Source: Bacillales bacterium
GTDB lineage: Bacteria > Bacillota > Bacilli > Paenibacillales > CANHCR01
Direction: 5' to 3'
DNA: 64,000 bases
NCBI GenBank assembly: GCA_947459205.1
Contig: CANHCR010000009.1
Location: 798-64,797, forward strand
The notes under the pieces were generated by a model that worked only from the letters and a program-made list of their open reading frames with translations, made no database searches and was not told the DNA's origin. Both the position numbers and the translations under genes were made by a program. The number at the start of each line of letters is the position of its first letter. Positions within the stretch are counted from its first letter, which is position 1. Positions 10,530-64,000 of the stretch are shown here, one piece after another.

Positions 10530-10781
10530 TTACTGCATCCAGGAACGAATTTCGTCTTCGCTTTCACCAGTTACTGTTGCGATCGTGTTGATGTCCGCAA
10601 GACCTAAACGTAAAATTTGAATTGAGAGTTTTTTTCTTCCTAGTTGGATTCCTTTTTGGTAGCCCTCTTGCATACCAGCAAGGCGTGCTTCTTCAAGTTG
10701 CTTTTGCCAAGCATTTTGCTCATTTTGAATCATAGCGGCATCCTCGCATTGTGGATTAGGATTTGACATTACTGTACCCAA
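10530..10781 (-). other. stand-alone copy of the Rpn C-terminal tail (83 aa): gene fragment or small partner protein
   Basis: AAMIQNEQNAWQKQLEEARLAGMQEGYQKGIQLGRKK..LGLADINTIATVTGESEDEIRSWMQ parallels the last about 85 aa of the upstream Rpn protein (AAMIENVQNAWQKKLEEIRLAGISEGEQKG..LGITDIPTISKLTGITEDEIRSWVQ). Overlaps its stop by 13 nt. Confidence 0.5.
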
Positions 10782-11842
10782 GATCGTATCTCATCCTCGG
10801 TAATACCTGTCAGTTTTGAAATGGTAGGGATATCCGTTATGCCTAAACTTAATAATTGTTTTGCGATTTCCTTTTTGCCTAGTTCAACTCCTTGTTGCAA
10901 TCCTTGTTGCAATCCTTGTTGCAATCCTTGTTCAACCCCTTTTTGTTCCCCTTCGCTGATACCAGCAAGACGGATTTCTTCGAGTTTTTTTTGCCAAGCA
11001 TTTTGCACGTTTTCAATCATAGCGGCTTCCTCTCCTCGTTCGGTTTGTTCGAATATGTCGTTGATTTCGTCACGGTGCGCACCGATGCGAGCGCCGAGCA
11101 TGACGCTGAGCCAAATCATAAATTGCCTGTACTGTTCGTCGCTGAACGTTTGCATTTGCTTCGCGATGAACCGCAAACGCCGAATGGTTTCCTCGGGATC
11201 GGTATCGATCGTTTGTTCGAGGTAGAAGGCGCTGCTGATGGTGTCGGATGCACGCGTCAGGATTCTTTCGCTGAGACGATGGACGTCGACCAAGACGTAC
11301 TCGATGGTTGCGGTTAGCGGTTTGGGACTGCTGACGCGAAACAAATCGAGGATGACGGTTTGCGGGTTGTGCCACTTCGGTTTACCGTTGTAGAGAATGA
11401 TGGGCACGATCATCGGCAGCGTGCAGACGCTTGCACTCGATTCGTCTTCAGACAGTTCGCGGATCGAACGGCGCCACTGTTCCATCGAACTTTCAAAGAT
11501 TCGCAGGCCCATTCGTGCATCGACTGTGGACTGCAACTCGAGCAGAATAAAGTAGAACGTTTGCTGTGCTCGATTACGGACGCGGTAGATGAGATCGCCG
11601 GTCGTTTTCGACAAATCCTTTTTGATAAACTCTGGGTTGACGGACAAGATCTCCAAATCGTCAATCTCGTCAATCTCGTCGATCTCGTCAATGAGCGGAT
11701 AGGGTACGAAACGGCGCATGAACTCGAGAAAAGTGCGCTTATCCGATAGTAGATGCTTGTAGCCGCTGTCGTGAATATGATAGGTAGTGAGGTTCGATAC
11801 GTACGGTGATGTCTCTTCGGATACTGCTGCAAGTTGCGGCAC
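10769..11842 (-). CDS. Rpn/YhgA-like recombination-promoting nuclease (PD-(D/E)XK, transposase_31-like)
   Basis: The N-terminus (HDSGYKHLLSDKRTFLEFMRRFVP), the IILYNG core and the helical tail are typical of this family. GTG start follows GAAGGAG. Confidence 0.85.
   Translation of the reverse strand: MPQLAAVSEETSPYVSNLTTYHIHDSGYKHLLSDKRTFLEFMRRFVPYPLIDEIDEIDEIDDLEILSVNPEFIKKDLSKTTGDLIYRVRNRAQQTFYFILLELQSTVDARMGLRIFESSMEQWRRSIRELSEDESSASVCTLPMIVPIILYNGKPKWHNPQTVILDLFRVSSPKPLTATIEYVLVDVHRLSERILTRASDTISSAFYLEQTIDTDPEETIRRLRFIAKQMQTFSDEQYRQFMIWLSVMLGARIGAHRDEINDIFEQTERGEEAAMIENVQNAWQKKLEEIRLAGISEGEQKGVEQGLQQGLQQGLQQGVELGKKEIAKQLLSLGITDIPTISKLTGITEDEIRSWVQ
10889..10936. repeat. 12-nt tandem repeat (tccttgttgcaa, about 4 copies) inside the rpn-like gene
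   Basis: Read directly. Encodes (QQGL)x3-4 on the minus strand. Confidence 0.85.
11658..11693. repeat. 9-nt tandem repeat (tcgtcaatc, 4 copies) inside the rpn-like gene
   Basis: Read directly. Encodes IDEIDEIDEIDD on the minus strand. Confidence 0.85.
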
Positions 11843-32441: not shown

Positions 32442-32595
32442 ATAGAATAATATCCTTGTCGGCATACTCGAGTCTTATTGGATCGGAGTGTGATTCAACA
32501 GTGGCACTCATCCTATGTCCTGAATGTGGAAAATCGATATCAGATTGACCTTCCCCCTCAAAACTGATCCACTTCAAAAGTTAGTTTATGAACGC

Positions 32596-32785
32596 GGTGA
32601 AACGGTTGTTTCTGATCTCATTCAGAGCGTCAAAATTACTATGGATGATATTTTTCATTTTCGTAGTAGCTGATTTGTAGCGTTAAGTGATTTTACCATG
32701 AGTATAACCATGTGGTGTGATGGTTGAGAATTCACCACATGGTTTTTCTTTTTTGGCAGGAAAATCATCACCTATGTGGAAATTG
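32596..32785 (+). promoter_or_regulatory. leader-like module, copy 1 (diverged homologue of 51389-51579)
   Basis: Aligns by eye with 51389-51579 over its full length: gaaacggttgtttctgat, tcaaaattac, ttttcgtagtagctgatt, catgagtataaccatgtgg, catggtttttc-ttttttggcaggaaaa. Contains a 9-codon mini-ORF (32698..32727, MSITMWCDG) and a terminator. Confidence 0.7.
32706..32754 (+). terminator. intrinsic terminator inside leader module copy 1
   Basis: Perfect 12-bp stem aaccatgtggtg (32706-32717) / caccacatggtt (32733-32744) followed by tttctttttt. Confidence 0.75.
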
Positions 32786-32804
32786 TTTAAGAGGTCCCAA
32801 TCGT

Positions 32805-33000
32805 TGTCAATCACCCGTTTTCCATTGCGAATCCGAATCGATATTTTCGTTGATGAACCGAATTCAGTTGCTCTTGGTTGTACGTTTTCAGTAAATGGGG
32901 ATTAAGTTTTAATTTCGCTTGCTATCTGCGACACTTCAAGGCGATGAGATGTTTTACAATTTGCTGATACGTTAATATGAGATTTCGTAAAACTCGATGA
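32805..33000 (+). repeat. about 195-bp direct repeat, copy A (near-identical to 61294-61490)
   Basis: Base-by-base comparison shows one 1-nt indel and four substitutions. It ends at the RBS GAAGGAG of a 17-codon mini-ORF (33014..33067). Confidence 0.9.
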
Positions 33001-33130
33001 AGGAGTGATTCTCATGAAAGACTTACCGAAGGTTTTGCAAAAGCAATTTTTATTTAAAAATGAAACATGAGCCGCATTAGATAGAGGAAAAAGTTATGTA
33101 AGTCAATCACCCGAAAAAGTATCAGAAGCG

Positions 33131-34255
33131 ATGCAAAACAGCGAATGTAACCTAGCGCAAATTTTGCCGATGATTTCTGCAAATTCTCCAGAACATCACA
33201 AAGCCATCATCCAGCAATGTCCATCCGCAATTCGTGAAATGGCTAACCCTGATGAGGCGCTCAAATCGATGGCTTTGCAGATTGCACCTTGGATGCGACA
33301 TGTTTTACATCTTCGTAATGATGACGAAGCCCTGCAAAAACTGATTGAGGCGACCGTGAATCATGGGTTTTTTATGGAACGAGAGGCCGAACAGCCATCT
33401 CTGCATTTAGGCGGGGTCCCGTTTCCAAAGAAAATCTATTATCCGCTTGATCGCTTTCCGAACGACCATTTTAAATTAGATATTCATGACGCGAAGCGTC
33501 AATCTCAACCGCTGTCCAGTTCGAGAATTAACGAGCATGATGACCGCGTTGATGTTTCGCCTGATTTTGAAAGTTGGGCATGGTATCAAACGTTTCATGC
33601 ATGGTCGGATGAGGAATACGGCATCTATATCACCACGTCTGGTTTAGCAAGATTTGCGGACCGTGCATTTTATCAAGCGCTTTTACGACATGAGCACCAA
33701 TCGAATCCGAACCCAAATAAGACAGAATTGAAAAAGATATGGTCTCAGTCTTTGCAAATGGCTTTTCAGACCGTGCTATTTCATGAATACTATCATTTCT
33801 TTAAGGATATTGCAGCTGCCACTTTAGAACAACTTTGGTTCGCATTGAACCCTGGGAACACACGCCAGTTTTTTCATGAGTACAGAAAGAACATCTATTT
33901 TCCTGGGCTACATAACCGACTTCGTGAAGAGCCATTGGAAGAGGCGTTGGCGAATGCTTTTTCTTGGCGAGCGTTCTGCGAAAGATACTCAGATTCATCT
34001 TTGTATGATCAACAAGCGATCGAACTTGTAAAACAAGATTTGGCGAAATATATGACTAATCAACCAAGCGGGTACTGTCATTATGATCAATTTATTGAAG
34101 ACGCGGAGTATGTGAAAGGGAATCAACAACTGATCTCTTTGCTGTTGACTCAGCAGGCGAGTGTGATTCCAGGCAGCGAGCGTCTCTTGCAACCGACTTT
34201 CGCTGACATGTACAAGTATAACGTGCCCGTTTATGTGATTGATGATCGAGACTAG
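33131..34255 (+). CDS. hypothetical protein with HExxH motif (putative zinc metallopeptidase-like)
   Basis: 374-aa ORF with VLFHEYYHFF (HExxH) and a downstream acidic EEPLEEALANAF segment. Weak RBS. No family recognised. Confidence 0.6.
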   Translation: MQNSECNLAQILPMISANSPEHHKAIIQQCPSAIREMANPDEALKSMALQIAPWMRHVLHLRNDDEALQKLIEATVNHGFFMEREAEQPSLHLGGVPFPKKIYYPLDRFPNDHFKLDIHDAKRQSQPLSSSRINEHDDRVDVSPDFESWAWYQTFHAWSDEEYGIYITTSGLARFADRAFYQALLRHEHQSNPNPNKTELKKIWSQSLQMAFQTVLFHEYYHFFKDIAAATLEQLWFALNPGNTRQFFHEYRKNIYFPGLHNRLREEPLEEALANAFSWRAFCERYSDSSLYDQQAIELVKQDLAKYMTNQPSGYCHYDQFIEDAEYVKGNQQLISLLLTQQASVIPGSERLLQPTFADMYKYNVPVYVIDDRD

Positions 34256-34528: not shown

Positions 34529-34637
34529 TTACATAATTGAGGATTTTAAATGAAATTATTGAATTATAACGATGCTGGTAAATTCTGTACGCATCAGGAA
34601 AATACTTTATCTTTCAATTCAAGGTGGTCTGATATCT

Positions 34638-50999: not shown

Positions 51000-51388
51000 A
51001 CACAAATGTATTTTATACAATCTCTGCGGAATGGGATTCTGCAAGCATTCAAAATTGTTAGGAAATCAAATTCATGGGAACATGAGATCATATCATTCGA
51101 TTGGAGAAGTGTATGTCAGGACATCAAAGATAGCAGCTTTATCGTCGGGATGTTGTCGAGCATGTCTTGAGAAGGGTGAAGAACCCTACAGCATCTGTTG
51201 GCTCGCTCAACTGAGTTGAGTAATCACTCGTTTTTTTGCCAGTGGGCATTGAGGGCATTTTGTATCAAATTCTCTAAACTGCTGATGTCCGACATCAAGT
51301 GATTTTAGGGGAATTCACGAGTGCATGAAATCAAGCATCCAATCAAGACGGTATGTTATTAATGGCACCAATTAAGGTGTATTAAATT

Positions 51389-51579
51389 GGAGAAACGGTT
51401 GTTTCTGATTATATACAGCGTGTCAAAATTACAATTGATGATATTATCCATTTTCGCAGTAGCTGATTCATAGTAAAAAATGGCATTATCATGAGTATAA
51501 CCATGTGGAAAGATTTTTGAAAATCTGCCGCATGGTTTTTCTTTTTTTGGCAGGAAAACCATCAAATATGTAGAATTTA
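51389..51579 (+). promoter_or_regulatory. leader-like module, copy 2, directly upstream of the 51619 operon
   Basis: Homologous to 32596-32785. Contains mini-ORF 51491..51520 (MSITMWKDF) overlapping the 5' arm of a terminator. It ends about 40 nt before the RBS GGAGGG of the 51619 gene. Confidence 0.7.
51499..51548 (+). terminator. intrinsic terminator/attenuator inside leader module copy 2
   Basis: Stem aaccatgtgg (51499-51508) / ccgcatggtt (51528-51537, one G-U), inner stem agatttt/aaaatct, then tttttcttttttt. The stem is conserved with copy 1 while the loops differ. Confidence 0.7.
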
Positions 51580-51618
51580 TAAAATAGAATTCTAAATAAT
51601 CGGAGGGTTTGATTTCAT

Positions 51619-55701: not shown

Positions 55702-58137
55702 ATGATGATTCGCATCGATCTAGAGCGAGCTCGCACGGCACGCACGATTGTCGCGCGTTTGCAGCTAGCCATGAAAGAGCACTGGCAAGTCGCCTTTCCT
55801 TTATATGAAGATGCGGAACGGGCACGCCTGCTTTGTTTGCAAAACGGCGGCGGAAACCGTAATTTCACTCACCCGCGTTTGCTCCAGATGTGGCGAGATC
55901 TTCAAAAGGAATCGCAAATGAACGTCACGATTACGTTTTTCGACCTCAATCGGCATTATGCAAAGTTGGTGGAGGCCGCGTTTCGTGCTGATCTAGCAGA
56001 TTTTTTTGCCACGTGTACAGCAGATGAGCGAACTGCGCTTCCTGTTCTGAATGTGTTCAATTACATTTGTCCTAAACATTGGCAGTTGCAAATCGATGGC
56101 GTCCAGTGGGGCTCCGTTTATGCTCGGACCGAGGTGCCTGAGCTGCCGGTGGATGCTTTATTTGCGTGCAATCGTGAAGCGACGATGGAACCGGTGTGGG
56201 CAGATCAGGCGATTGCATGGTTGGAGTATCGTCTGCATCACTGCAACCAGTTGTCTGAAGTTTCGAAAGTCATCAAGTCTACGTTTAGCAAAATCAAGAA
56301 GCGCCTCTATTTGACGTATCAATTGACGGAACTTTATGAGGCGTATCGCGTCATCCTTGACGCTTTGCCAAAGCTTGCACGCGCCGAACGATTGCTGAAG
56401 ATGTATCGCCTCGAATTCGCACAGCTACTCGCCATCCATTTTGAGGAAGAGTGTGCGCAACCGTTAGCAAATTTCAATCAATCCATCGAGACGAATATTT
56501 TAGACATTCAAGTTCTGACTGCGCTACATGAAGAAATTGCGTTTGATGGCTTTGCTTGGCTTGGACGTTGGCGACAAGAAACGCGCACTTCTTCTGTCAT
56601 CCACCAACGAAAATGCAAGTGGTTCGATCAATGCAACGAATTGTTTCAAGCACATGATGGTCAATACAAGCCTTGGATGCGCGAAATCTTCTGTAAATTA
56701 GCGATTGAGTTCCATGCGCGTATGCAACATCGACAAATGGAGCAACTTTTCGAATGGAACAAATCGGTGCGCTATTGGAACGTAATGGACCGCTTAATTG
56801 TGTTTTATGACTGGCATGAACTCGTGACGAGAGATACAAGTTATCTATTCGATGTGGCGGAACGAATGACTTTCATCGGTCGTTTCGAACGTGTCGTGCG
56901 CAACTATTTCCGCCATTTGCGAGAGGATGATATAAGTGAGCAAGATATGGTAGAGCGGTTCCAAAATCAATATATCGTGCCGCGACAGTTCATGCGTTAT
57001 GATACTTGGATTCGCGAAGTCGATAAGCTAATTGGCAACGAGCGTTGGATGAGTCGCTTTTCCGAAGCAACGCAATTGGATTTGCGTTTTGCGGTGCTGA
57101 AGTCACACACTCTATTGTCGTTTTTTCAAACACCACTCGACGAACGTTTTGCAGAATTACAGCAACAAATTGAGCAACGTTACGGAAGAATGGATCGACG
57201 TTGGATTGAATTGATGACAGATATTTATCCGAAGATCGCTGATCGGCTGAAAAGAGCCGATCAATACGGTCTCTTAATATTGAATTCGATTGAAGAGGAT
57301 AATCACGACAATTTGGGTGATCGACTACAAGTTATCGCAACGTTGTTGGAGCGAAAAACTATTTTGCTGAATCAGTCAACAATCCTCAGTTTGGCTCACG
57401 AATATGTAGAAATTGTGGCATTAACGAAAAAGAAAGATTTGACTGGATTATGCAAATTAATCTGGTCGCGCGGCGCCCGAACATTGTACTTTTATTTAAT
57501 GCAACGGCAACTCGAAACATATGCAGCAATGGATAACAAAAATGTTTTGGATGCTATGCGTTTTTATGGAAACTGCATCTTATTAAATGAGGATATTTTC
57601 AGAACCGCAACTCTTTTTACAAAAGCTTCAGATTATTCTTTTGCTTGTTTCCGCATGGTAGAGCAAATTGTAATCCAAAAAGCTACATTTGATATGAGTC
57701 ACTTATCTTTTTTAGCAAAGTTGTTGGTGATGTGTTCACAGTCGAACGATTCACGGACTCCGTCCATTATGCAAAACTTATATGAGTATGTGTTGAACGG
57801 CATCGAAGAGGTACAAAAACAAGATAAATCTTTATCAGAGAAATGGAGAAATCGTTTTTTTAAAATACTCCGCAATAAAGATTGGCACATTTGGGTGGAA
57901 AAACATGGGGGTGAGCAAATGTGGTGGGATTGGTTGGAGTTTTCTTGGTCAGAAACGAAAAATTGGTATTTGAAGACCTTGAAAGATGTGATGATCGTCT
58001 CACGGTTGAACACGCTCAAAAAATTCGAAACACGTTTTTCCTTGGACGCAGGTCGACTTGCCGCTGTCGCCGAGATGCGAGCAAGATGTTATGATCTGCT
58101 CGGTCCGCATCATCCGAAGGTGAAAGGTGGGATGTGA
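55702..58137 (+). CDS. large hypothetical alpha-helical protein (811 aa)
   Basis: RBS AAAGGAG. Trp/Arg-rich and helical. Its size and position upstream of MoxR/vWA recall the large uncharacterised partners (YehM/DUF4132-like) of other MoxR-vWA loci, but no homology could be verified. Confidence 0.7.
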   Translation: MMIRIDLERARTARTIVARLQLAMKEHWQVAFPLYEDAERARLLCLQNGGGNRNFTHPRLLQMWRDLQKESQMNVTITFFDLNRHYAKLVEAAFRADLADFFATCTADERTALPVLNVFNYICPKHWQLQIDGVQWGSVYARTEVPELPVDALFACNREATMEPVWADQAIAWLEYRLHHCNQLSEVSKVIKSTFSKIKKRLYLTYQLTELYEAYRVILDALPKLARAERLLKMYRLEFAQLLAIHFEEECAQPLANFNQSIETNILDIQVLTALHEEIAFDGFAWLGRWRQETRTSSVIHQRKCKWFDQCNELFQAHDGQYKPWMREIFCKLAIEFHARMQHRQMEQLFEWNKSVRYWNVMDRLIVFYDWHELVTRDTSYLFDVAERMTFIGRFERVVRNYFRHLREDDISEQDMVERFQNQYIVPRQFMRYDTWIREVDKLIGNERWMSRFSEATQLDLRFAVLKSHTLLSFFQTPLDERFAELQQQIEQRYGRMDRRWIELMTDIYPKIADRLKRADQYGLLILNSIEEDNHDNLGDRLQVIATLLERKTILLNQSTILSLAHEYVEIVALTKKKDLTGLCKLIWSRGARTLYFYLMQRQLETYAAMDNKNVLDAMRFYGNCILLNEDIFRTATLFTKASDYSFACFRMVEQIVIQKATFDMSHLSFLAKLLVMCSQSNDSRTPSIMQNLYEYVLNGIEEVQKQDKSLSEKWRNRFFKILRNKDWHIWVEKHGGEQMWWDWLEFSWSETKNWYLKTLKDVMIVSRLNTLKKFETRFSLDAGRLAAVAEMRARCYDLLGPHHPKVKGGM

Positions 58138-58744
58138 TTTGAATCGTCAAACGAAAAAGAAATATCGCCTGCGCAATTGGGATGACGTACAAGAGTTTGA
58201 AAAATATGCGCGACTCATCACCGAACTGATGATTTCCTGTTTGCCTCGCGAACAGGTGGAACGTTTGATGCTGGCGCGTCTAAATGAGCGAGATTTTTCG
58301 ACATTGCAATGTTGGTTCAATCACGATAAAGATTTTACGGCGACCGTCGCGGCGTTGCAAACGCAAGATTTCTCGCGCTTTGTGGAACTTACTTTGTTTA
58401 ACGTATTCAGTGAACTAGAGCGGGCACTTGTCGAGTATTTAGATTCGCTCGATTTCACGCCGGAAGTAGAGGTTCAGAACGCGGAAATTGTGGTGCGCAA
58501 TCCGCTTCCGTTTTTGCAATATACGACGTGGCCGATGGAAGATTACTCGTATCTAGTCGTAAAGACAAGCATCGACAAACAGAAGTTTTGGGCAGAGAAA
58601 TGGAGCCGTTCGGAGCAAAAGATTTTACAAAAGGTATATGCGTACAAGAAAAACCGCAGCGGGCGCTATGTGATTGCAAAAGACGAGTTCGCCAAGGCGT
58701 TGATTGAAATGAACGAGTTGTTAGGCAACCCGACTGATCGTTAA
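58127..58744 (+). CDS. hypothetical protein
   Basis: 205 aa. GTG 58127 or TTG 58139 start, overlapping or abutting the stop of the 811-aa gene (translational coupling). Confidence 0.6.
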   Translation: MGCDLNRQTKKKYRLRNWDDVQEFEKYARLITELMISCLPREQVERLMLARLNERDFSTLQCWFNHDKDFTATVAALQTQDFSRFVELTLFNVFSELERALVEYLDSLDFTPEVEVQNAEIVVRNPLPFLQYTTWPMEDYSYLVVKTSIDKQKFWAEKWSRSEQKILQKVYAYKKNRSGRYVIAKDEFAKALIEMNELLGNPTDR

Positions 58745-58756
58745 GGAGGTACCACC

Positions 58757-59827
58757 ATGCATCATGTGACACCAGGAAAATTGTTGGAAATTTTGCTACC
58801 GCTGTATACGAACGCTGCGAAAATGAGTGAAGTGCCGAGCATCATGCTGTGGGGCGAGCCAGGCATCGGCAAGTCGCAGACGATTCGTAAACTGAAAGAT
58901 GAGTTGCATCGTTTGACGGGCAAGGAGGGATTGTTGCGCGACGTGCGCCTCTTGCTCTACAATCCTGTCGATTTGAAAGGCATTCCCGTGCCTGACGAGG
59001 AGCGAGTGCGCTCGAAGTGGTTGCGACCGACGCTGTTTGATTTCGCGGAGGGTGATGAGTTTCTGCATGTGCTCATGCTCGATGAAATATCGGCAGCTCC
59101 GCCATCCGTGCAGGCAGCAGCATATCAGCTGATTTTGGATCGGCAAATCGGCGATCACAAACTGCCAGACAATGTCGTCGTTATCGCAGCGGGCAACCGC
59201 ATCGGTGATGGCGGTGTTGCGTTTCGTATGCCGACGCCCCTTCGCAATCGCATGACCCATTTTAAAATTGAGCAGGATTTAGACGATTGGCTTTCCTACG
59301 CCGAACGCGATCAGCTGCACGAAGCGGTGCGTGGCTTTATTCGTTTCGCAGGTATTAAGATGCTGCTTGATTTCCGCGCCGACAGCGACGAGGAAGCGTT
59401 TCCGACACCGCGCAGCTGGGAGTTCGTCTCGCGCTATTTGAAGTTGTACGGCGATTCACAACTCGCTGAACCTGCGATTGTTGGAACGGTAGGCAAAGGA
59501 GCAGCAGCTTCCTTTATTGAGTATACGAAAGTGTTCGAGGAATTGCCGGATCTCGAGGCGATTATGGCGGGTCAGCAGGTCGAATTGAAATCGACACGCT
59601 TTGACGTGATTTGTGCGCTGTCCATTCGTATCGCTGGCGTGATTCCGACGATGACGAGTGAGCAAGCCCATCATCTCGTCGATTTTTTACTTAAGTCGGC
59701 GATAAAAATCGAACATATTTTCATGTTGATCAGTGATTTGTGGCGCATATCGAGAACACACGAGATGATACGCGGCATGAGCAGTTTGGTGCAATGGCAA
59801 ATGTCACACAAACGATTTTTTAAGTAG
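58757..59827 (+). CDS. MoxR-like AAA+ ATPase (AAA_5)
   Basis: Walker A GEPGIGKSQ, Walker B LMLDEISAA, sensor VIAAGNR and PTPLRNRM. RBS AAGGAGG. Confidence 0.9.
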   Translation: MHHVTPGKLLEILLPLYTNAAKMSEVPSIMLWGEPGIGKSQTIRKLKDELHRLTGKEGLLRDVRLLLYNPVDLKGIPVPDEERVRSKWLRPTLFDFAEGDEFLHVLMLDEISAAPPSVQAAAYQLILDRQIGDHKLPDNVVVIAAGNRIGDGGVAFRMPTPLRNRMTHFKIEQDLDDWLSYAERDQLHEAVRGFIRFAGIKMLLDFRADSDEEAFPTPRSWEFVSRYLKLYGDSQLAEPAIVGTVGKGAAASFIEYTKVFEELPDLEAIMAGQQVELKSTRFDVICALSIRIAGVIPTMTSEQAHHLVDFLLKSAIKIEHIFMLISDLWRISRTHEMIRGMSSLVQWQMSHKRFFK

Positions 59828-59830
59828 GCG

Positions 59831-61081
59831 ATGCGGATGAACGAAGAACAAGAAGCATTAAAGAAATTGGAAAACTCATTGACCGTACTGATTGTCAAGT
59901 TTCCGTTCTTAGGCAGGTTGGCATTGCACTTGCAATTGCGTGCGCGGCCCGATGTGAAGACCGCGGCGACAGATGGGATTCATTATTTCTATGCGCCGCA
60001 GTTTTTTGCCCGACTGAAGCAAACCGAGGTTAATTTTGTCACGATCCATGAAGTGATGCATGTCGTATTCAAACATATTGAACGTTGCCGTGATCGGGAT
60101 TTGGATTTTGTCACGTACAATTTTGCCTCGGATTATGTGATTAATGCCGCCATCCGTGAACTCGATCCGACGCAAGAGATTTTTAAAATGCCGAAACAAG
60201 GCTTGTACAAAAAGAAATATGAGGGTCTGTATACGGAAGAAGTGTACGCGCTTTTGCAGAACAGCGACTCGGGGCAAGAGTTGATTGATCGTTACAAAAA
60301 GCAAAAAGAAGCGCAAGAACGGGGTGTAGGAGAGGGTACGCATCCGATTAAGGGACACGATGTGTGGCGCGAATTGTACGATCGCTTGTCTCCTTCGGAT
60401 ATTGAGCAGTATGAAAGGGAATGGCAGCGTAGAATCGATAGCGAAATCCGACATTTTCCGGAGCGATTTGCGGGTAGCAGTGCGGGGTCGATGTTTCGCC
60501 GGTTTGTGCTTGAGCGTGCGGTGCCGAAAAAAAACTGGCGCCGGTTGCTGCACGAGTTCTTGGCATTTGAAAGCAACGATTTCGGCTTCAATCCGCCGAA
60601 TCCCAATATGATGCACTTATCGCAATTTGGCTACGATGTGATCATGCCGGATTGGAGCGAGCAAGAGCCTGTTTTGCGCAACATCGTGTTCGCCGTCGAT
60701 ACGTCGGGGTCGGTTGATGGCGCACAGTTTCAACTTGTACACAATGAGATCATTGCCTGCCTGCAAATGTTTGGCGGGCGCGTGGATGGCAAGTTGATTT
60801 ACTGTGACGCTCATATTCCTGATGATGGTGTGTACGACATTGTGAACGTGAAAAACGCGCTGCCGGTCGGCGGTGGTGGCACGAGTTTCATCCCCGTATT
60901 CGAGTGGATCGCAGCTAATTGGCAAAATCAGTGTGCGGGCCTCGTGTATTTGACCGATGGGTATGGTGAATTTCCCGATTTTGCTCCGCCGTATCCCGTA
61001 CTTTGGGTGCTGTTGCGAAAGAAGCATGAATGTGAGGTCGAAGTGCCGTTCGGCAGTCGAACCGAGTTAATTATGGATTGA
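59831..61081 (+). CDS. vWA domain protein with N-terminal HExxH metallopeptidase-like domain (DUF2201-type)
   Basis: IHEVMHVVFKH (HExxH) in the N-terminal half. MIDAS VFAVDTSGSVDG and a YLTDGYG-type strand in the C-terminal half. Starts 3 nt after the MoxR stop. Confidence 0.85.
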   Translation: MRMNEEQEALKKLENSLTVLIVKFPFLGRLALHLQLRARPDVKTAATDGIHYFYAPQFFARLKQTEVNFVTIHEVMHVVFKHIERCRDRDLDFVTYNFASDYVINAAIRELDPTQEIFKMPKQGLYKKKYEGLYTEEVYALLQNSDSGQELIDRYKKQKEAQERGVGEGTHPIKGHDVWRELYDRLSPSDIEQYEREWQRRIDSEIRHFPERFAGSSAGSMFRRFVLERAVPKKNWRRLLHEFLAFESNDFGFNPPNPNMMHLSQFGYDVIMPDWSEQEPVLRNIVFAVDTSGSVDGAQFQLVHNEIIACLQMFGGRVDGKLIYCDAHIPDDGVYDIVNVKNALPVGGGGTSFIPVFEWIAANWQNQCAGLVYLTDGYGEFPDFAPPYPVLWVLLRKKHECEVEVPFGSRTELIMD

Positions 61082-61293: not shown

Positions 61294-61490
61294 TGTCAAT
61301 CACCCGTTTTCCATTGCGAATCCGAATCGATATTTTCGTTGATGAACCGAATTCAGTTGCTCTTGGGTTATACGTTTTCAGTAAATGGGGATTAAGTTTT
61401 AATTTCGCTTGCTATCTGCGACACTTCAAGGCGATGAGATGTTTTACAATTTGCTGATACGTTAATATGAGATTTCGTCAAACTTGACGA
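61294..61490 (+). repeat. about 195-bp direct repeat, copy B (near-identical to 32805-33000)
   Basis: See copy A. Carries an open 54-codon frame (MSITRFPLRIRID..GLSFNFACY..) that is frameshifted in copy A. It ends at the start region of the 61484 gene. Confidence 0.9.
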
Positions 61491-63133
61491 TGGGGGTGGA
61501 GGTAATAAAAAACATTTCTATGCAAGACTTCAGCGTTGATGATGTTCCGAATCTAATTCGCTCCGCTGTCGATGAGATTAATTCTACACATAACAGTTTT
61601 GGGCCATACAACCGAGAATCTCTTGTCAAAGTGAAAGGTTGGCTTGAAACCGCATGGCAACTGATGGTTGACAAGGAGTTCTGTGAGACTCATCTGCAAA
61701 TCGCTTGGCCGTTAACGGTTGTATATATTAGGCTGAATTTGCCTCATAGCATTGATGAACTCATACAATACTTGAAAAAACATGATCGTGAAGGTTTGTC
61801 CGAATCTCTGTTAAGCTTGATGAAAACCTCGCAAGCTCTATCAAATTACACTTCAATCTATAAAACATATCATAACGGCTCAGTGGTGTATGAGTTGTCA
61901 AATCCAAAAGCTGTGGCACAACTTATTGCATTGTGTAGTGAACATCGGTATTGGGTGTTAGATATGAGAATTAAGGAACAACCTGTTTTACATGGTCACT
62001 CAATCGTCAAAGGTTTAACTGAGGCAGATGGAGCGATTTTGCTTGAATTAATGACGAATCGACGAGGAGCATCTTCGCAACTCATCATAGAGAGGTTGAA
62101 CGAAGTGCTTGATTCGGTTGTTGAAGCGGAACAGTTTGATCTCCGGATGTCACGACTACGCACACAATTAAGAGATCAATTTTCCGAACTAATCCCTCGA
62201 GATACCTTGTTTATCAATGAGTCTGAACGATATGAATGGAACGTGCCTGGTACGTTCTATGTAGTTGAAACAATTGATTATAAATCTATCAGTACCTCGG
62301 ACTTTTTGAATATCGGGCTAACACCGTATCATGTTTGCGACTTGTCAGATATGACGGAAATGAGTGATTTTGAAGCGTTTGAAAAATTTTGTTTGGCGGT
62401 CGCAGTGGAATACGGTTTATTTGTTGAAAAAGAACCTTACTCGCTTGATCAAGTATTACAACATCTAACGGAGTCGGCAGATGATAAAAAAATTCTTTCA
62501 CTATCTGGGGAGTTAATTAAAGGATTAGTAGTCTGTCAAATCCATCTGAAACATTCTGGTGAGATTGATAAAGTATGGGGTGAAATTGAAGCGATTTTGA
62601 AAAAAAACAAATTGTACAATTTCTATGAAAGGTATAATTATCTTTATCGTGCGTTAGATGAAAGTAGGTCACCGCATCTTTTGTATATAAATGGTGAGCA
62701 ATTTCGTGATGTGACCCTAGATCGTGTATATCGCACAATTGAGGATGCTCATGATCGTGAGGATATGTTAGTCTTGGACTATCGTGTTGCCATTCGACCC
62801 CGAATCCATGCTGCGGGAATAACTTGGGAAGTAACGCCGCTTCAAGGGAAATTATTGTTCGCGCTTATGACAACAACTCGCCCTGTGACAAAGGAGCAAA
62901 TTATCGCTTACGTAGGTGAATCCTTTTCATTCGATCGAATGCTCCAAAATTTAAGACAAAGATTTGAAGACAAGTATCCTAACCATTACAACACTAAGTT
63001 TCTTCGCAGTCCAGATAAAAAAGGATATCGCATTGGACTGGATTGTGAATTTGCTGTCATTGATAGAAAAACATACGAACCTTACACTGGGATCATTAAA
63101 CCATCACCTATAATTCAATTCACTAACATCTAG
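61484..63133 (+). CDS. putative transcriptional regulator with two OmpR/PhoB-type winged-helix (Trans_reg_C-like) domains and no receiver domain
   Basis: Two matching segments: LTEADGAILLELMTNRRGASSQLIIERL..FDLRMSRLRTQLRDQF and VTPLQGKLLFALMTTTRPVTKEQIIAYV..DRMLQNLRQRFEDKY. Start ambiguous (TTG 61484, ATG 61490 or ATG 61520). Confidence 0.65.
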   Translation: MTMGVEVIKNISMQDFSVDDVPNLIRSAVDEINSTHNSFGPYNRESLVKVKGWLETAWQLMVDKEFCETHLQIAWPLTVVYIRLNLPHSIDELIQYLKKHDREGLSESLLSLMKTSQALSNYTSIYKTYHNGSVVYELSNPKAVAQLIALCSEHRYWVLDMRIKEQPVLHGHSIVKGLTEADGAILLELMTNRRGASSQLIIERLNEVLDSVVEAEQFDLRMSRLRTQLRDQFSELIPRDTLFINESERYEWNVPGTFYVVETIDYKSISTSDFLNIGLTPYHVCDLSDMTEMSDFEAFEKFCLAVAVEYGLFVEKEPYSLDQVLQHLTESADDKKILSLSGELIKGLVVCQIHLKHSGEIDKVWGEIEAILKKNKLYNFYERYNYLYRALDESRSPHLLYINGEQFRDVTLDRVYRTIEDAHDREDMLVLDYRVAIRPRIHAAGITWEVTPLQGKLLFALMTTTRPVTKEQIIAYVGESFSFDRMLQNLRQRFEDKYPNHYNTKFLRSPDKKGYRIGLDCEFAVIDRKTYEPYTGIIKPSPIIQFTNI

Positions 63134-63198
63134 TGAAAGCCTGCTCACTTAGGATAAAGATAAGTAATAAACACACTTATTATAAGGGAGCGATTAAG

Positions 63199-63942
63199 AT
63201 GTCGAAAAACAACGATCAGATTAGAGAATTGCTAGCTTTTTATCAAAACAATGGTGACCGTCATGCACTGGAACAAATCATGATGGAACATATGAAACTG
63301 GTTTGTTTTATCGTGAACCAATTTTTGTCCGACAAAGAGACATATGCGAGAACATGGTTTGATGATTTATGCTCGGAAGGAAATCTTGGTTTGATGCATG
63401 CCGCAAATGAATATGATTTGTCTCGTAACACTAAATTCTCTCATTATGCTTATATGAAAATTTTTCGCAATGTGAGTCGAGCGTATCATGAGTGTATAAA
63501 ACAAATGAAAGTCCCGTATTCACATGTGACTCGTCTGAAGCGATACATTGAAGCGGATAGCATGTTTAAGAACGCACTTAATTTGGAAGTATCACATCGT
63601 GAGTTTATAAAATCAGAGATGGGGATTTCGGAATGCCAATACTGGAATCTCAAGCATGCCGCAGCTGCTAGTGACGTTGATTTTTTAGATGACGATTCCT
63701 TTGAAACATCAGCCATAACTCCAACAATTCGTTTAGAAGACGAGGTGATTTATGGAGAGTTTGAAACTTTTTTAAACCATATCTTGTCTCAATTAGATGT
63801 GGAAGTGGGGCAACTGGTCGTACAAAGAATGAACATCGATTTTTCGCGTAAATCGCAACAAAAAGTATTAAGTAGAAAGGAAAAACAAGTCCTTCAACCG
63901 GTGCAGTCACTTATCGGCGAGTGGTTTAACGAATCAAATTAA
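63199..63942 (+). CDS. sigma-70 family RNA polymerase sigma factor (divergent; region 4 not obvious)
   Basis: Region 2 DLCSEGNLGLMHAANEYDLSRNTKFSHYAYMKIFRNVSRA, then MKVPYSHVTRLKRY, then a region-3-like HTH. ATG 63199 follows AAGGGAG (track start 63133). Confidence 0.8.
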   Translation: MSKNNDQIRELLAFYQNNGDRHALEQIMMEHMKLVCFIVNQFLSDKETYARTWFDDLCSEGNLGLMHAANEYDLSRNTKFSHYAYMKIFRNVSRAYHECIKQMKVPYSHVTRLKRYIEADSMFKNALNLEVSHREFIKSEMGISECQYWNLKHAAAASDVDFLDDDSFETSAITPTIRLEDEVIYGEFETFLNHILSQLDVEVGQLVVQRMNIDFSRKSQQKVLSRKEKQVLQPVQSLIGEWFNESN

Positions 63943-63959: not shown

Positions 63960-64000
63960 ATGAAAACATTCGATTTTGAACAATTCGTACAAGCGTTATC
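63960..64000 (+). CDS. hypothetical protein, 3'-truncated by the window edge
   Basis: ATG 63960 lies 6 nt after AGGAGG. Only 13 codons are visible. Confidence 0.4.
   Translation, partial: MKTFDFEQFVQAL

Follow-up and report, generated by a model that had tools for sequence, protein, structure and literature searches.

Two adjacent genes near the end of a 64,000-nucleotide (nt) stretch of Bacillales DNA (contig CANHCR010000009.1, positions 798 to 64,797; hereafter the window) encode a soluble 547-aa protein with two predicted winged helix-turn-helix (wHTH) domains and a divergent 247-aa member of the sigma-70 family. The genes lead an operon of approximately 10 kb within a defence island, directly behind a non-coding 200-bp cassette whose only other copy lies upstream of an operon encoding three dynamins. 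Our tentative reading is that the two genes encode a pair of proteins devoted to transcription initiation, which would regulate their own operon and probably the dynamin operon as well; in our assessment this reading falls a little short of being probable.

Defence operons can be costly or toxic, and how bacteria silence them until the need arises is an open question; to our knowledge few dedicated regulators of such operons have been described (CapH/CapP, CapK/CapS, BrxR/CapW and DdvS/DdvA). If the reading above is true, this problem would be solved here in another way, by a private sigma factor whose -35-reading part is defective and a protein that carries two winged helices in one chain; a promoter cassette copied before two operons would likewise be a solution of its own. 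It would also provide a natural case in which promoter recognition is divided between a sigma factor and an activator. The value of these considerations is limited, as both proteins are orphans, each known only from this one uncultured Bacillales genome, and statements on their function are deduced.

Locus and gene calls

The window consists of metagenome-assembled DNA, and the same stretch is present as scaffold_69 (226,917 bp) in ENA sample ERZ28613002 (L001), which allowed 10 kb past the window end to be read. Two long open reading frames (ORFs) on the + strand fill positions 61484-63942, and both are intact and identical in three assemblies. The earlier note on this DNA had given them as proteins of 549 and 269 aa, beginning at TTG 61484 and GTG 63133; both ORFs are real, but public gene calls shift the lengths to 547 and 247 aa. 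The features of the region are the following.

61294..61493, + strand: repeat B copy B, a non-coding 200-bp cassette, presumed promoter/leader, reaching the annotated starts of the wHTH gene (from its identity to copy A)
32805..33003, + strand: repeat B copy A, located before the dynamin operon; a small ORF with its strong Shine-Dalgarno sequence at 33015 and a 374-aa gene at 33131 come next (from its identity to copy B)
61490..63133, + strand: wHTH gene, encoding a 547-aa soluble protein (P0001) with two predicted winged-helix domains (ORF and public gene call, ATG 61490)
TTG 61484 and ATG 61520, + strand: alternative starts of the wHTH gene (ORF reading)
61490..61945, + strand: alpha-helical module 1, aa 1-152, not a receiver (only noise in Pfam at E <= 10; low-confidence AlphaFold2 (AF2) prediction mostly helical)
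61946..62269, + strand: wHTH-1, aa 153-260, homologous to wHTH-2 (BLASTP of the two halves; alignments of the two repeats)
62270..62764, + strand: predicted alpha-helical module 2, aa 261-425 (no family match; low-confidence helical prediction)
62765..63070, + strand: wHTH-2, aa 426-527, predicted OmpR/PhoB-type fold (AF2 domain model and Foldseek)
63184..63190, + strand: Shine-Dalgarno sequence AAGGGAG of the sigma gene (read from the sequence)
63199..63942, + strand: sigma gene, encoding a 247-aa divergent sigma-70-family protein (P0002; public gene call, ATG 63199)
63247..63777, + strand: sigma regions 1.2/2.1 to 3.2, aa 17-193 (hhalign)
63778..63939, + strand: C-terminal tail of the sigma protein, aa 194-247, with a region-4.1-like helix and a shortened remnant (MAFFT, hhalign, Pfam)
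63960..64000, + strand: start of the M28 peptidase gene, the third cistron, which runs off the window; the operon goes on for ~7.7 kb (gene list, Pfam/PADLOC)

Just 3' of repeat B copy A lies a strong Shine-Dalgarno sequence, AAGGAGTG, followed by an 18-codon ORF, MKDLPKVLQKQFLFKNET (33015-33070). The first 11 nt of this ORF, ATGAAAGACTT, are similar to ATGCAAGACTT at position 61520 (61520-61530) within the wHTH ORF, and this resemblance raises the possibility that the wHTH gene truly starts, or ancestrally started, at ATG 61520.

The tandem winged-helix protein

The 547-aa protein is internally duplicated: in a BLASTP comparison of its N-terminal and C-terminal halves, residues 156-231 align with residues 428-496 (29% identity over 76 aa, E = 1e-7). 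Whole-chain AF2 prediction without an alignment was unusable (pLDDT 38.7). The C-terminal segment was modelled without templates, using an alignment that consisted of the two repeats of the protein only, which resulted in a pLDDT of ~80 over residues 1-100 and a pTM of 0.67. The topology of this model is beta3-alpha3-beta2 (E5-10, E17-20, E23-26, H29-39, H47-54, H60-74, E92-94, E99-104). When compared with the PDB using Foldseek, all of the 50 best matches were OmpR/PhoB-type DNA-binding domains (CadC, BaeR, RitR, OmpR, PhoB, ArlR, GlnR, ToxR and CovR), with probabilities of 0.95-1.00 and E-values of 3e-3 to 7e-2; among isolated DNA-binding-domain chains the target-normalised TM-score rose to 0.72. 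The model supports the presence, at fold level, of two OmpR/PhoB-type winged helices in the 547-aa protein, of which we infer the N-terminal one (wHTH-1) from its homology to wHTH-2.

At the level of sequence this relationship is not visible. The Trans_reg_C model (PF00486) did not match the whole protein at E <= 1 or isolated segments at E <= 10, and a profile of the two repeats searched against the PDB returned only noise (e.g., haemagglutinin HA2) and no chain of the OmpR family. Similarly, a BLASTP comparison with the PhoB DNA-binding domain was not significant, the query having been checked to be identical to 1GXP and 1QQI. As neither profiles, PDB chains nor PhoB itself match, the protein does not belong to the OmpR/PhoB family by sequence. 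The two OmpR/PhoB-type domains proposed in the earlier note thus hold at fold level, through the internal repeat, the AF2 model and the Foldseek matches, but no sequence model detects them.

A word-indexed search of 5.8 billion proteins identified no relative of the 547-aa protein besides itself, and an exhaustive phmmer search of 1.84 billion representative proteins likewise returned only the protein itself. Searches of Pfam, NCBIfam, PHROGs and PADLOC, and phmmer against the PDB, gave nothing or noise.

The wHTH protein had also been described as lacking a phosphoacceptor domain, and this is borne out: the receiver model Response_reg did not match the whole protein at E <= 1 or the two helical modules at E <= 10. 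Both modules, of ~150 aa each, are predicted to be helical rather than (beta-alpha)5, albeit with low confidence in AF2, and are candidate signal-sensing or oligomerisation parts. A membrane anchor was looked for as well, but the maximum 19-residue Kyte-Doolittle hydropathy is 1.42 and there is no transmembrane segment. The 547-aa protein is soluble, and arose by doubling of a unit that consists of a ~150-aa helical module and an OmpR/PhoB-type winged helix.

The wHTH-1 segment (61946-62269) has a weak, non-significant Pfam match (E = 0.18) to PF25742 'Phage Gene 33 protein', which is probably due to chance; phage late-transcription co-factors are relevant to sigma factors without region 4.

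The sigma-70-family protein

Several independent comparisons place the 247-aa protein in the sigma-70 family. It matches Sigma70_r2 (PF04542) with 30.7 bits against a gathering score of 24 (E = 2.7e-7), and approximately 47 sigma models of NCBIfam (including RpoD, RpoS, SigF/G, WhiG and RpoH) match partially at ~1e-11 to 1e-13. The NCBIfam superfamily model TIGR02937 gives 41.3 bits, just under its cut-off of 42.9. PDB sigma chains match with E-values down to 2e-7, and the best library match is a phage family, PHROG 351 (E = 7e-20). In an hhalign comparison with six full-length reference sigmas, residues 17-193 correspond to regions 1.2-3.2 (98.45%, E = 4e-15, template columns 118-298 of 362), and when read against the references the core-binding motif of region 2.2, 'DLCSEGNLGLMHAANEYD', is retained.

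The protein does not belong to any defined subfamily, as the models for RpoD, RpoS, SigF/G, SigB, FliA/WhiG, RpoH and SigK score 32-48 bits, far under their cut-offs of 190-1020. Over alignments of at least 100 aa, identity to phage and plasmid sigmas does not exceed ~30%, even for the nearest of them, and the alignments are confined to regions 2-3; one short 90-aa cyanophage segment reaches 36.7% identity. As for its neighbour, both the word-indexed and the phmmer searches returned only the protein itself.

Regions 2 and 3 had been called clear in the earlier note, and this stands for region 2 (Pfam, hhalign); region 3 is covered by the hhalign and full-length NCBIfam alignments, which run to ~3.2, but Sigma70_r3 of Pfam is unmatched even on the isolated fragment. 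By these comparisons the 247-aa protein is a sigma-70-family member with a predicted intact core-binding and -10-reading part (regions 2-3).

Region 4 is different. The helix-turn-helix (HTH) of region 4.2 normally reads the -35 element of a promoter. Neither PF04545 nor PF08281 matched the whole protein or isolated fragments, and the hhalign alignment ends at residue 193, exactly where region 4 begins. Two BLASTP alignments placed the region-4.1 motif in conflicting registers, and in the MAFFT alignment a gap of ~18 columns in the sigma protein falls opposite the loop and first helix that make up part of region 4.2 in the references. The earlier observation that no region 4.2 is obvious is therefore confirmed; judged from the alignments, region 4 is shortened and degenerate and appears to be without the first helix of the 4.2 HTH.

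Operon and defence-island context

The operon comprises 10 genes, in the order wHTH, sigma, M28 peptidase, MkoB-like PLD, 293 aa, 108 aa, 231 aa, LeoB-like, PDC-M09A/LeoA-like and TerB. It is preceded by a gap of 408 nt and the gaps between its genes are 65, 17, 28, 23, 12, 48, 68, 22 and 34 nt, so that the packing stays within 12-68 nt up to a convergent gene after TerB. The tight co-directional packing behind the 408-nt gap indicates that the pair leads a self-contained operon of ~10 kb. The genes from PLD to TerB are located at L001 11912-18463 (window-equivalent 65110-71661). The 485-aa PLD protein contains an MkoB/MkoC/DrmC-like nuclease domain (PADLOC MkoB, 1e-22), the 516-aa protein a LeoB-like C-terminus and the 133-aa protein a TerB domain, and the 342-aa protein shows a full-length match to PDC-M09A (2e-24) and a weak match to LeoA. 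Together they may form a new defence system, or a composite one.

The window is a genuine defence island. On one strand it encodes an SNF2 helicase, an AAA_21 ATPase, a type III methylase with Res, EVE-HNH, an SF1 helicase with an MTES_1575 nuclease, three dynamins (at 34572, 36476 and 38633) and McrBC, as well as an 811-aa gene, a 205-aa gene, a MoxR AAA+ gene and a DUF2201 VWA-metallopeptidase gene that precedes the 408-nt gap. The three dynamins are the sole paralogues within the island. MoxR-vWA conflict systems have been described, but without a sigma factor (PMC7159879). The relatives of the MoxR/DUF2201 proteins on plasmids are only ~30% identical, and none were found in viral contigs.

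The first gene of the dynamin operon (33131-34255, 374 aa, no Pfam match) contains an HExxH-like motif, LFHEYYHF. Its product may be a metallopeptidase, judging from this motif, which would parallel the M28 gene behind the other copy of the cassette.

The repeat B cassette

The two copies of repeat B are ~98-100% identical and ~28.5 kb apart, with the dynamin-side copy upstream. Copy B ends a few bases from the annotated start of the wHTH gene, and copy A is located ~130 nt upstream of the first gene (374 aa) of the three-dynamin locus. The core 25-mer of the repeat has two matches in the window where none are expected by chance, and no further copies were found in JGI metagenomes, GTDB genomes, IMG/VR or the 10 kb past the window. 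The position of the pair directly behind one copy, with its twin before the dynamin locus, was correctly noted earlier, and there are exactly two copies.

Two other identities for the cassette were considered and rejected. A 1-nt indel between the copies breaks the sole small ORF, so that the cassette is non-coding, and a structured RNA or riboswitch was ruled out as no Rfam family matches and the z-score for folding is +0.41.

Over 10.8 kb, just two positions, 61367 and 61370 (also 32877-32880), distinguish the window from the independent ENA assembly. Both are inside repeat B, and they are the two sites that separate copy A from copy B, which the assemblies swap. The copies are thus effectively interchangeable, as expected after recent duplication or gene conversion. 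The swapped sites themselves may have come about by gene conversion or through heterogeneity among strains, or the copies may have been mixed up during assembly.

The GC content at third codon positions (GC3) is 35-38% in the regulator block, compared to 56-59% upstream and 46-52% downstream of it, and 35-40% in the dynamin locus. In its composition the block therefore resembles the dynamin locus and differs from both of its flanks.

Relatives of the M28 peptidase

The M28 gene that follows the pair does have relatives. The closest, P0004 (54% identity), is encoded on a 7,986-bp contig of JGI sample 3300059473 in the order LRAT, 841 aa, 200 aa, MoxR, DUF2201/VWA and M28 (300 aa), which mirrors window positions 55702-61081 plus M28, but with the wHTH/sigma pair absent between DUF2201/VWA and M28. 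Thus, the MoxR-VWA module and the M28 gene are neighbours in two lineages. The P0004 protein is without the N-terminal 75 residues, so that the contig is more likely to derive from a deletion than to represent the ancestral arrangement.

The closest full-length relative is P0005 (43% identity from end to end, the N-terminal 75 aa included). P0073, which shares at least 90% identity with P0005, is encoded in the same metagenome on another scaffold (ENA ERZ28613002 scaffold_1766, L100 7640-10945), in the order sigma (280 aa, canonical regions 2-4), 98 aa, divergent sigma-like protein of 302 aa and M28, where the stop of the 302-aa gene overlaps the M28 start. The 302-aa protein is a divergent sigma that aligns from region 2 to 4.2 (hhalign 95.1%, E = 3e-8), with a recognisable region 4 (Pfam r4, E = 7.5e-4). 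It shows no significant pairwise similarity to the sigma of the window. The surroundings of this locus are metabolic and spore(-germination) genes, and both sigma-M28 loci have a higher AT content in the sigma region than in the M28 gene. The arrangement in which a gene of this M28 subfamily is directly preceded by a sigma gene therefore recurs once, outside a defence context. More distant M28 relatives have unrelated neighbours, and the gene upstream of the 38%-identical P0006 is unrelated to either regulator.

Proposed regulatory circuit

In the circuit that we propose, the sigma protein would bind the host core RNA polymerase (RNAP) through region 2 and read a -10-like element in the cassette. 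The tandem winged-helix protein would bind upstream of or across the -35 position as a class-II-type activator, compensating for the defective region 4. PhoB- and SARP-type activators work at promoters without a -35 element and serve as a model for this role. The outcome would be positive autoregulation and co-induction of the two cassette-headed operons. We consider co-regulation of these operons plausible, whereas autoregulation and the 'switching on' of defence are purely what we infer. The folds and domain content, the layout of the operon and the shared cassette are what the analysis shows; the regulation is proposed on their basis. We count in favour of the circuit the position of the pair at the head of the operon, the duplicated cassette, the match in composition to the dynamin locus, the recurring sigma-M28 adjacency, which links the sigma to the downstream genes, and the precedent of DdvS/DdvA. 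Similarly, the absence of a sigma-A-type promoter from the cassette is compatible with the use of an alternative sigma.

Several observations weigh against this reading. The DNA-binding, RNAP-binding and transcriptional roles of the pair are presumptive, neither protein has homologues that would permit tests of covariation or conservation, and the OmpR/PhoB relationship of the 547-aa protein was looked for in its sequence and not found there. The winged-helix assignment comes from one model of moderate confidence, for which the Foldseek E-values are only 3e-3 to 7e-2, and the sigma may yet have an atypical region 4 in its last 54 residues. With regard to an identifiable promoter, no sigma-A consensus passed the scan of the cassette, no promoter or operator motif was found to be shared, and direct repeats in the cassette occur at chance level (124/300 and 90/300 shuffles). 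Long-term selection is a less natural cause of the near-identity of the copies than a recent duplication or gene conversion. As just two operons carry the cassette, any circuit is not island-wide. Finally, the second sigma-M28 locus (scaffold_1766) has neither a winged-helix gene nor a defence context, and the recurrence of the adjacency in such a locus suggests that the conserved partner of the sigma is the peptidase, not the island. Of the autoregulated, island-specific circuit proposed earlier, what remains is a pair of proteins of transcription-factor types at the head of an operon, behind a shared cassette; a promoter or operator was not identified in the cassette and its reach would be two operons.

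In a stricter form of the model, promoter recognition would be split, in that the sigma reads only the -10 element while the tandem wHTH protein reads the -35 or upstream DNA and docks on RNAP in place of region 4. We give this version little credence. If true, a portable unit of two proteins and a 200-bp cassette could be pasted before defence operons, placing them under one private switch.

Alternative explanations

The recurrence of a sigma gene next to M28 raises the possibility that the sigma and the peptidase form a module that is unrelated to defence, in which the sigma drives the peptidase or is controlled by it, and which has recombined here with a portable promoter cassette, its dynamin-side twin being a by-product. 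The P0073 locus, with its overlapping sigma-like and M28 genes amid metabolic and spore genes, fits such a module, as do the AT-rich sigma regions of both loci and the recent duplication of the cassette. The adjacency is nevertheless backed by one other locus only, the lack of significant similarity between the two sigmas makes orthology of the modules no more than putative, and directly before the gene of the closest M28 relative (P0004) there is a DUF2201/VWA gene in place of a sigma gene. Moreover, the operon in the window runs on into defence-type genes (MkoB-like PLD, PDC-M09A-like, LeoB-like and TerB). We regard this explanation as unlikely, though one that has to be taken seriously.

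Alternatively, the pair could itself be defence machinery. The sigma-like protein would be a sensor or decoy for RNAP, a phage anti-sigma or a sigma-appropriating factor, and the wHTH protein would sense foreign DNA, together activating the peptidase and nuclease effectors. The sigma-like MzaA of the MZA system is suspected to be such a sensor or decoy. The sigma of the window matches the MzaA models of NCBIfam (NF041931, 4.9e-10, 38.9 bits against a cut-off of 800, model positions 474-620) and PADLOC (PDLC02203, 3.7e-9, partial), but these matches are no better than those to ordinary sigmas and cover the generic core only. A degenerate region 4 would fit a sigma that no longer reads promoters, and by the layout of the operon the pair is co-transcribed with effector-type genes; its 5' position behind a shared cassette is, on the other hand, typical of regulators, and the second sigma-M28 locus is not a defence locus. 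Sigma-70 genes do occur inside restriction/helicase loci, as in E. faecium plasmid pW142. Taken together, we find a role as a defence component distinctly improbable.

The pW142 locus (NZ_CP096052.1 57649-62092; L099 11650-16093) encodes a sigma-70-family protein of 374 aa that is ~30% identical over regions 2-3; its gene comes immediately after the one for the R subunit of a type I restriction system, and shares an overlap with a helicase-related gene (1,114 aa).

Finally, the pair could be what is left of a phage or mobile element that inserted between the VWA and M28 genes and is now decaying, without present function. In favour of this, the GC3 of the block is below that of both flanks, the pair is absent between DUF2201/VWA and M28 of the P0004 contig, the best library match of the sigma is a phage family and both proteins are orphans, one with a truncated region 4. 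We nevertheless hold it to be very unlikely: the ORFs have remained long and intact in AT-rich DNA, where stops are frequent, the sigma gene has a strong Shine-Dalgarno sequence and lies 17 nt from the next gene, the borders of the block show no integrase, transposase or terminal repeat, and the shortened M28 protein makes the P0004 contig look like a deletion derivative.

Other repeats in the window

A second, older direct repeat is found upstream of two operons (32584-32793 and 51377-51587, 78% identity). It retains a hairpin, ACCATGTGGTG...CACCACATGGT, followed by a T-run, which is terminator-like with a 15-nt loop that is too long for the scanner. Within the copy at 51.5 kb, this element is followed by a sigma-A-like promoter, TTGGCA-18-TAGAAT (51547-51576).

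At the chromosomal edge of the island a 115-nt direct repeat is present (10638-10752 and 10925-11039, 77% identity, spacing 287 nt), partly within a minus-strand ORF of 357 aa that bears a QQGLQQGLQQGLQQG tract. The chromosomal SbcD of the left flank is at most 54% identical to that of Paenibacillus and Brevibacillus.

Comparison with known systems

Both proteins are of known kinds, and what is unusual is the duplication of a helical module with a wHTH domain in a single chain, the shortened region 4, the pairing of the two proteins and their lack of relatives.

The 547-aa protein shares the OmpR/PhoB-type fold with regulators of the ToxR/CadC/SARP type (the best structural match is the CadC domain 5ju7, and ToxR 8b4b is among the matches), and like these it is without a phospho-receiver. 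In contrast to them it has two winged helices per chain, each behind a ~150-aa helical module. It differs from ToxR and CadC in having no membrane anchor, and from SARP-type regulators in having no BTAD or other known partner domain. It is also undetected by Trans_reg_C and has no relatives in sequence. With group 1-3 sigma-70 factors and phage sigmas (PHROG 351), the sigma of the window aligns at high confidence through regions 1.2-3.2, and it retains the core-binding motif of region 2.2 and a segment similar to region 3.1, whereas its region 4 is shortened and not recognisable.

Dedicated sigma factors in defence islands had been thought to be uncommonly described, but there are precedents, namely DdvS/DdvA (PMC11506125) and the MzaA models of NCBIfam and PADLOC. 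In Myxococcus xanthus, the ECF (group 4) sigma DdvS and the transmembrane anti-sigma DdvA control a CBASS-CRISPR defence island (PMC11506125). Like DdvS, the sigma of the window is encoded with defence operons that it is proposed to control, presumptively so in our case; it differs in having a predicted region 3, no recognisable anti-sigma and a winged-helix protein as its partner. MzaA has a sigma-70-like core and a defence-cluster setting in common with the window sigma, but its profiles comprise ~700 positions (NCBIfam 726, PADLOC 683), of which only the generic sigma core is matched, and no Mza model matched among the downstream operon genes that were scanned against PADLOC. A regulator module upstream of defence operons is also known from CapK/CapS (PMC13373217).

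Sigma factors that function without a canonical region 4, or in a split form, include gp55 of phage T4 with gp33, and SigO-RsoA of B. subtilis. These systems resemble the arrangement that we propose for the pair in the window in that recognition of the -10 element is uncoupled from that of the -35 element and a second protein is needed. None of them uses an OmpR-type DNA binder, the kind of partner that we propose here.

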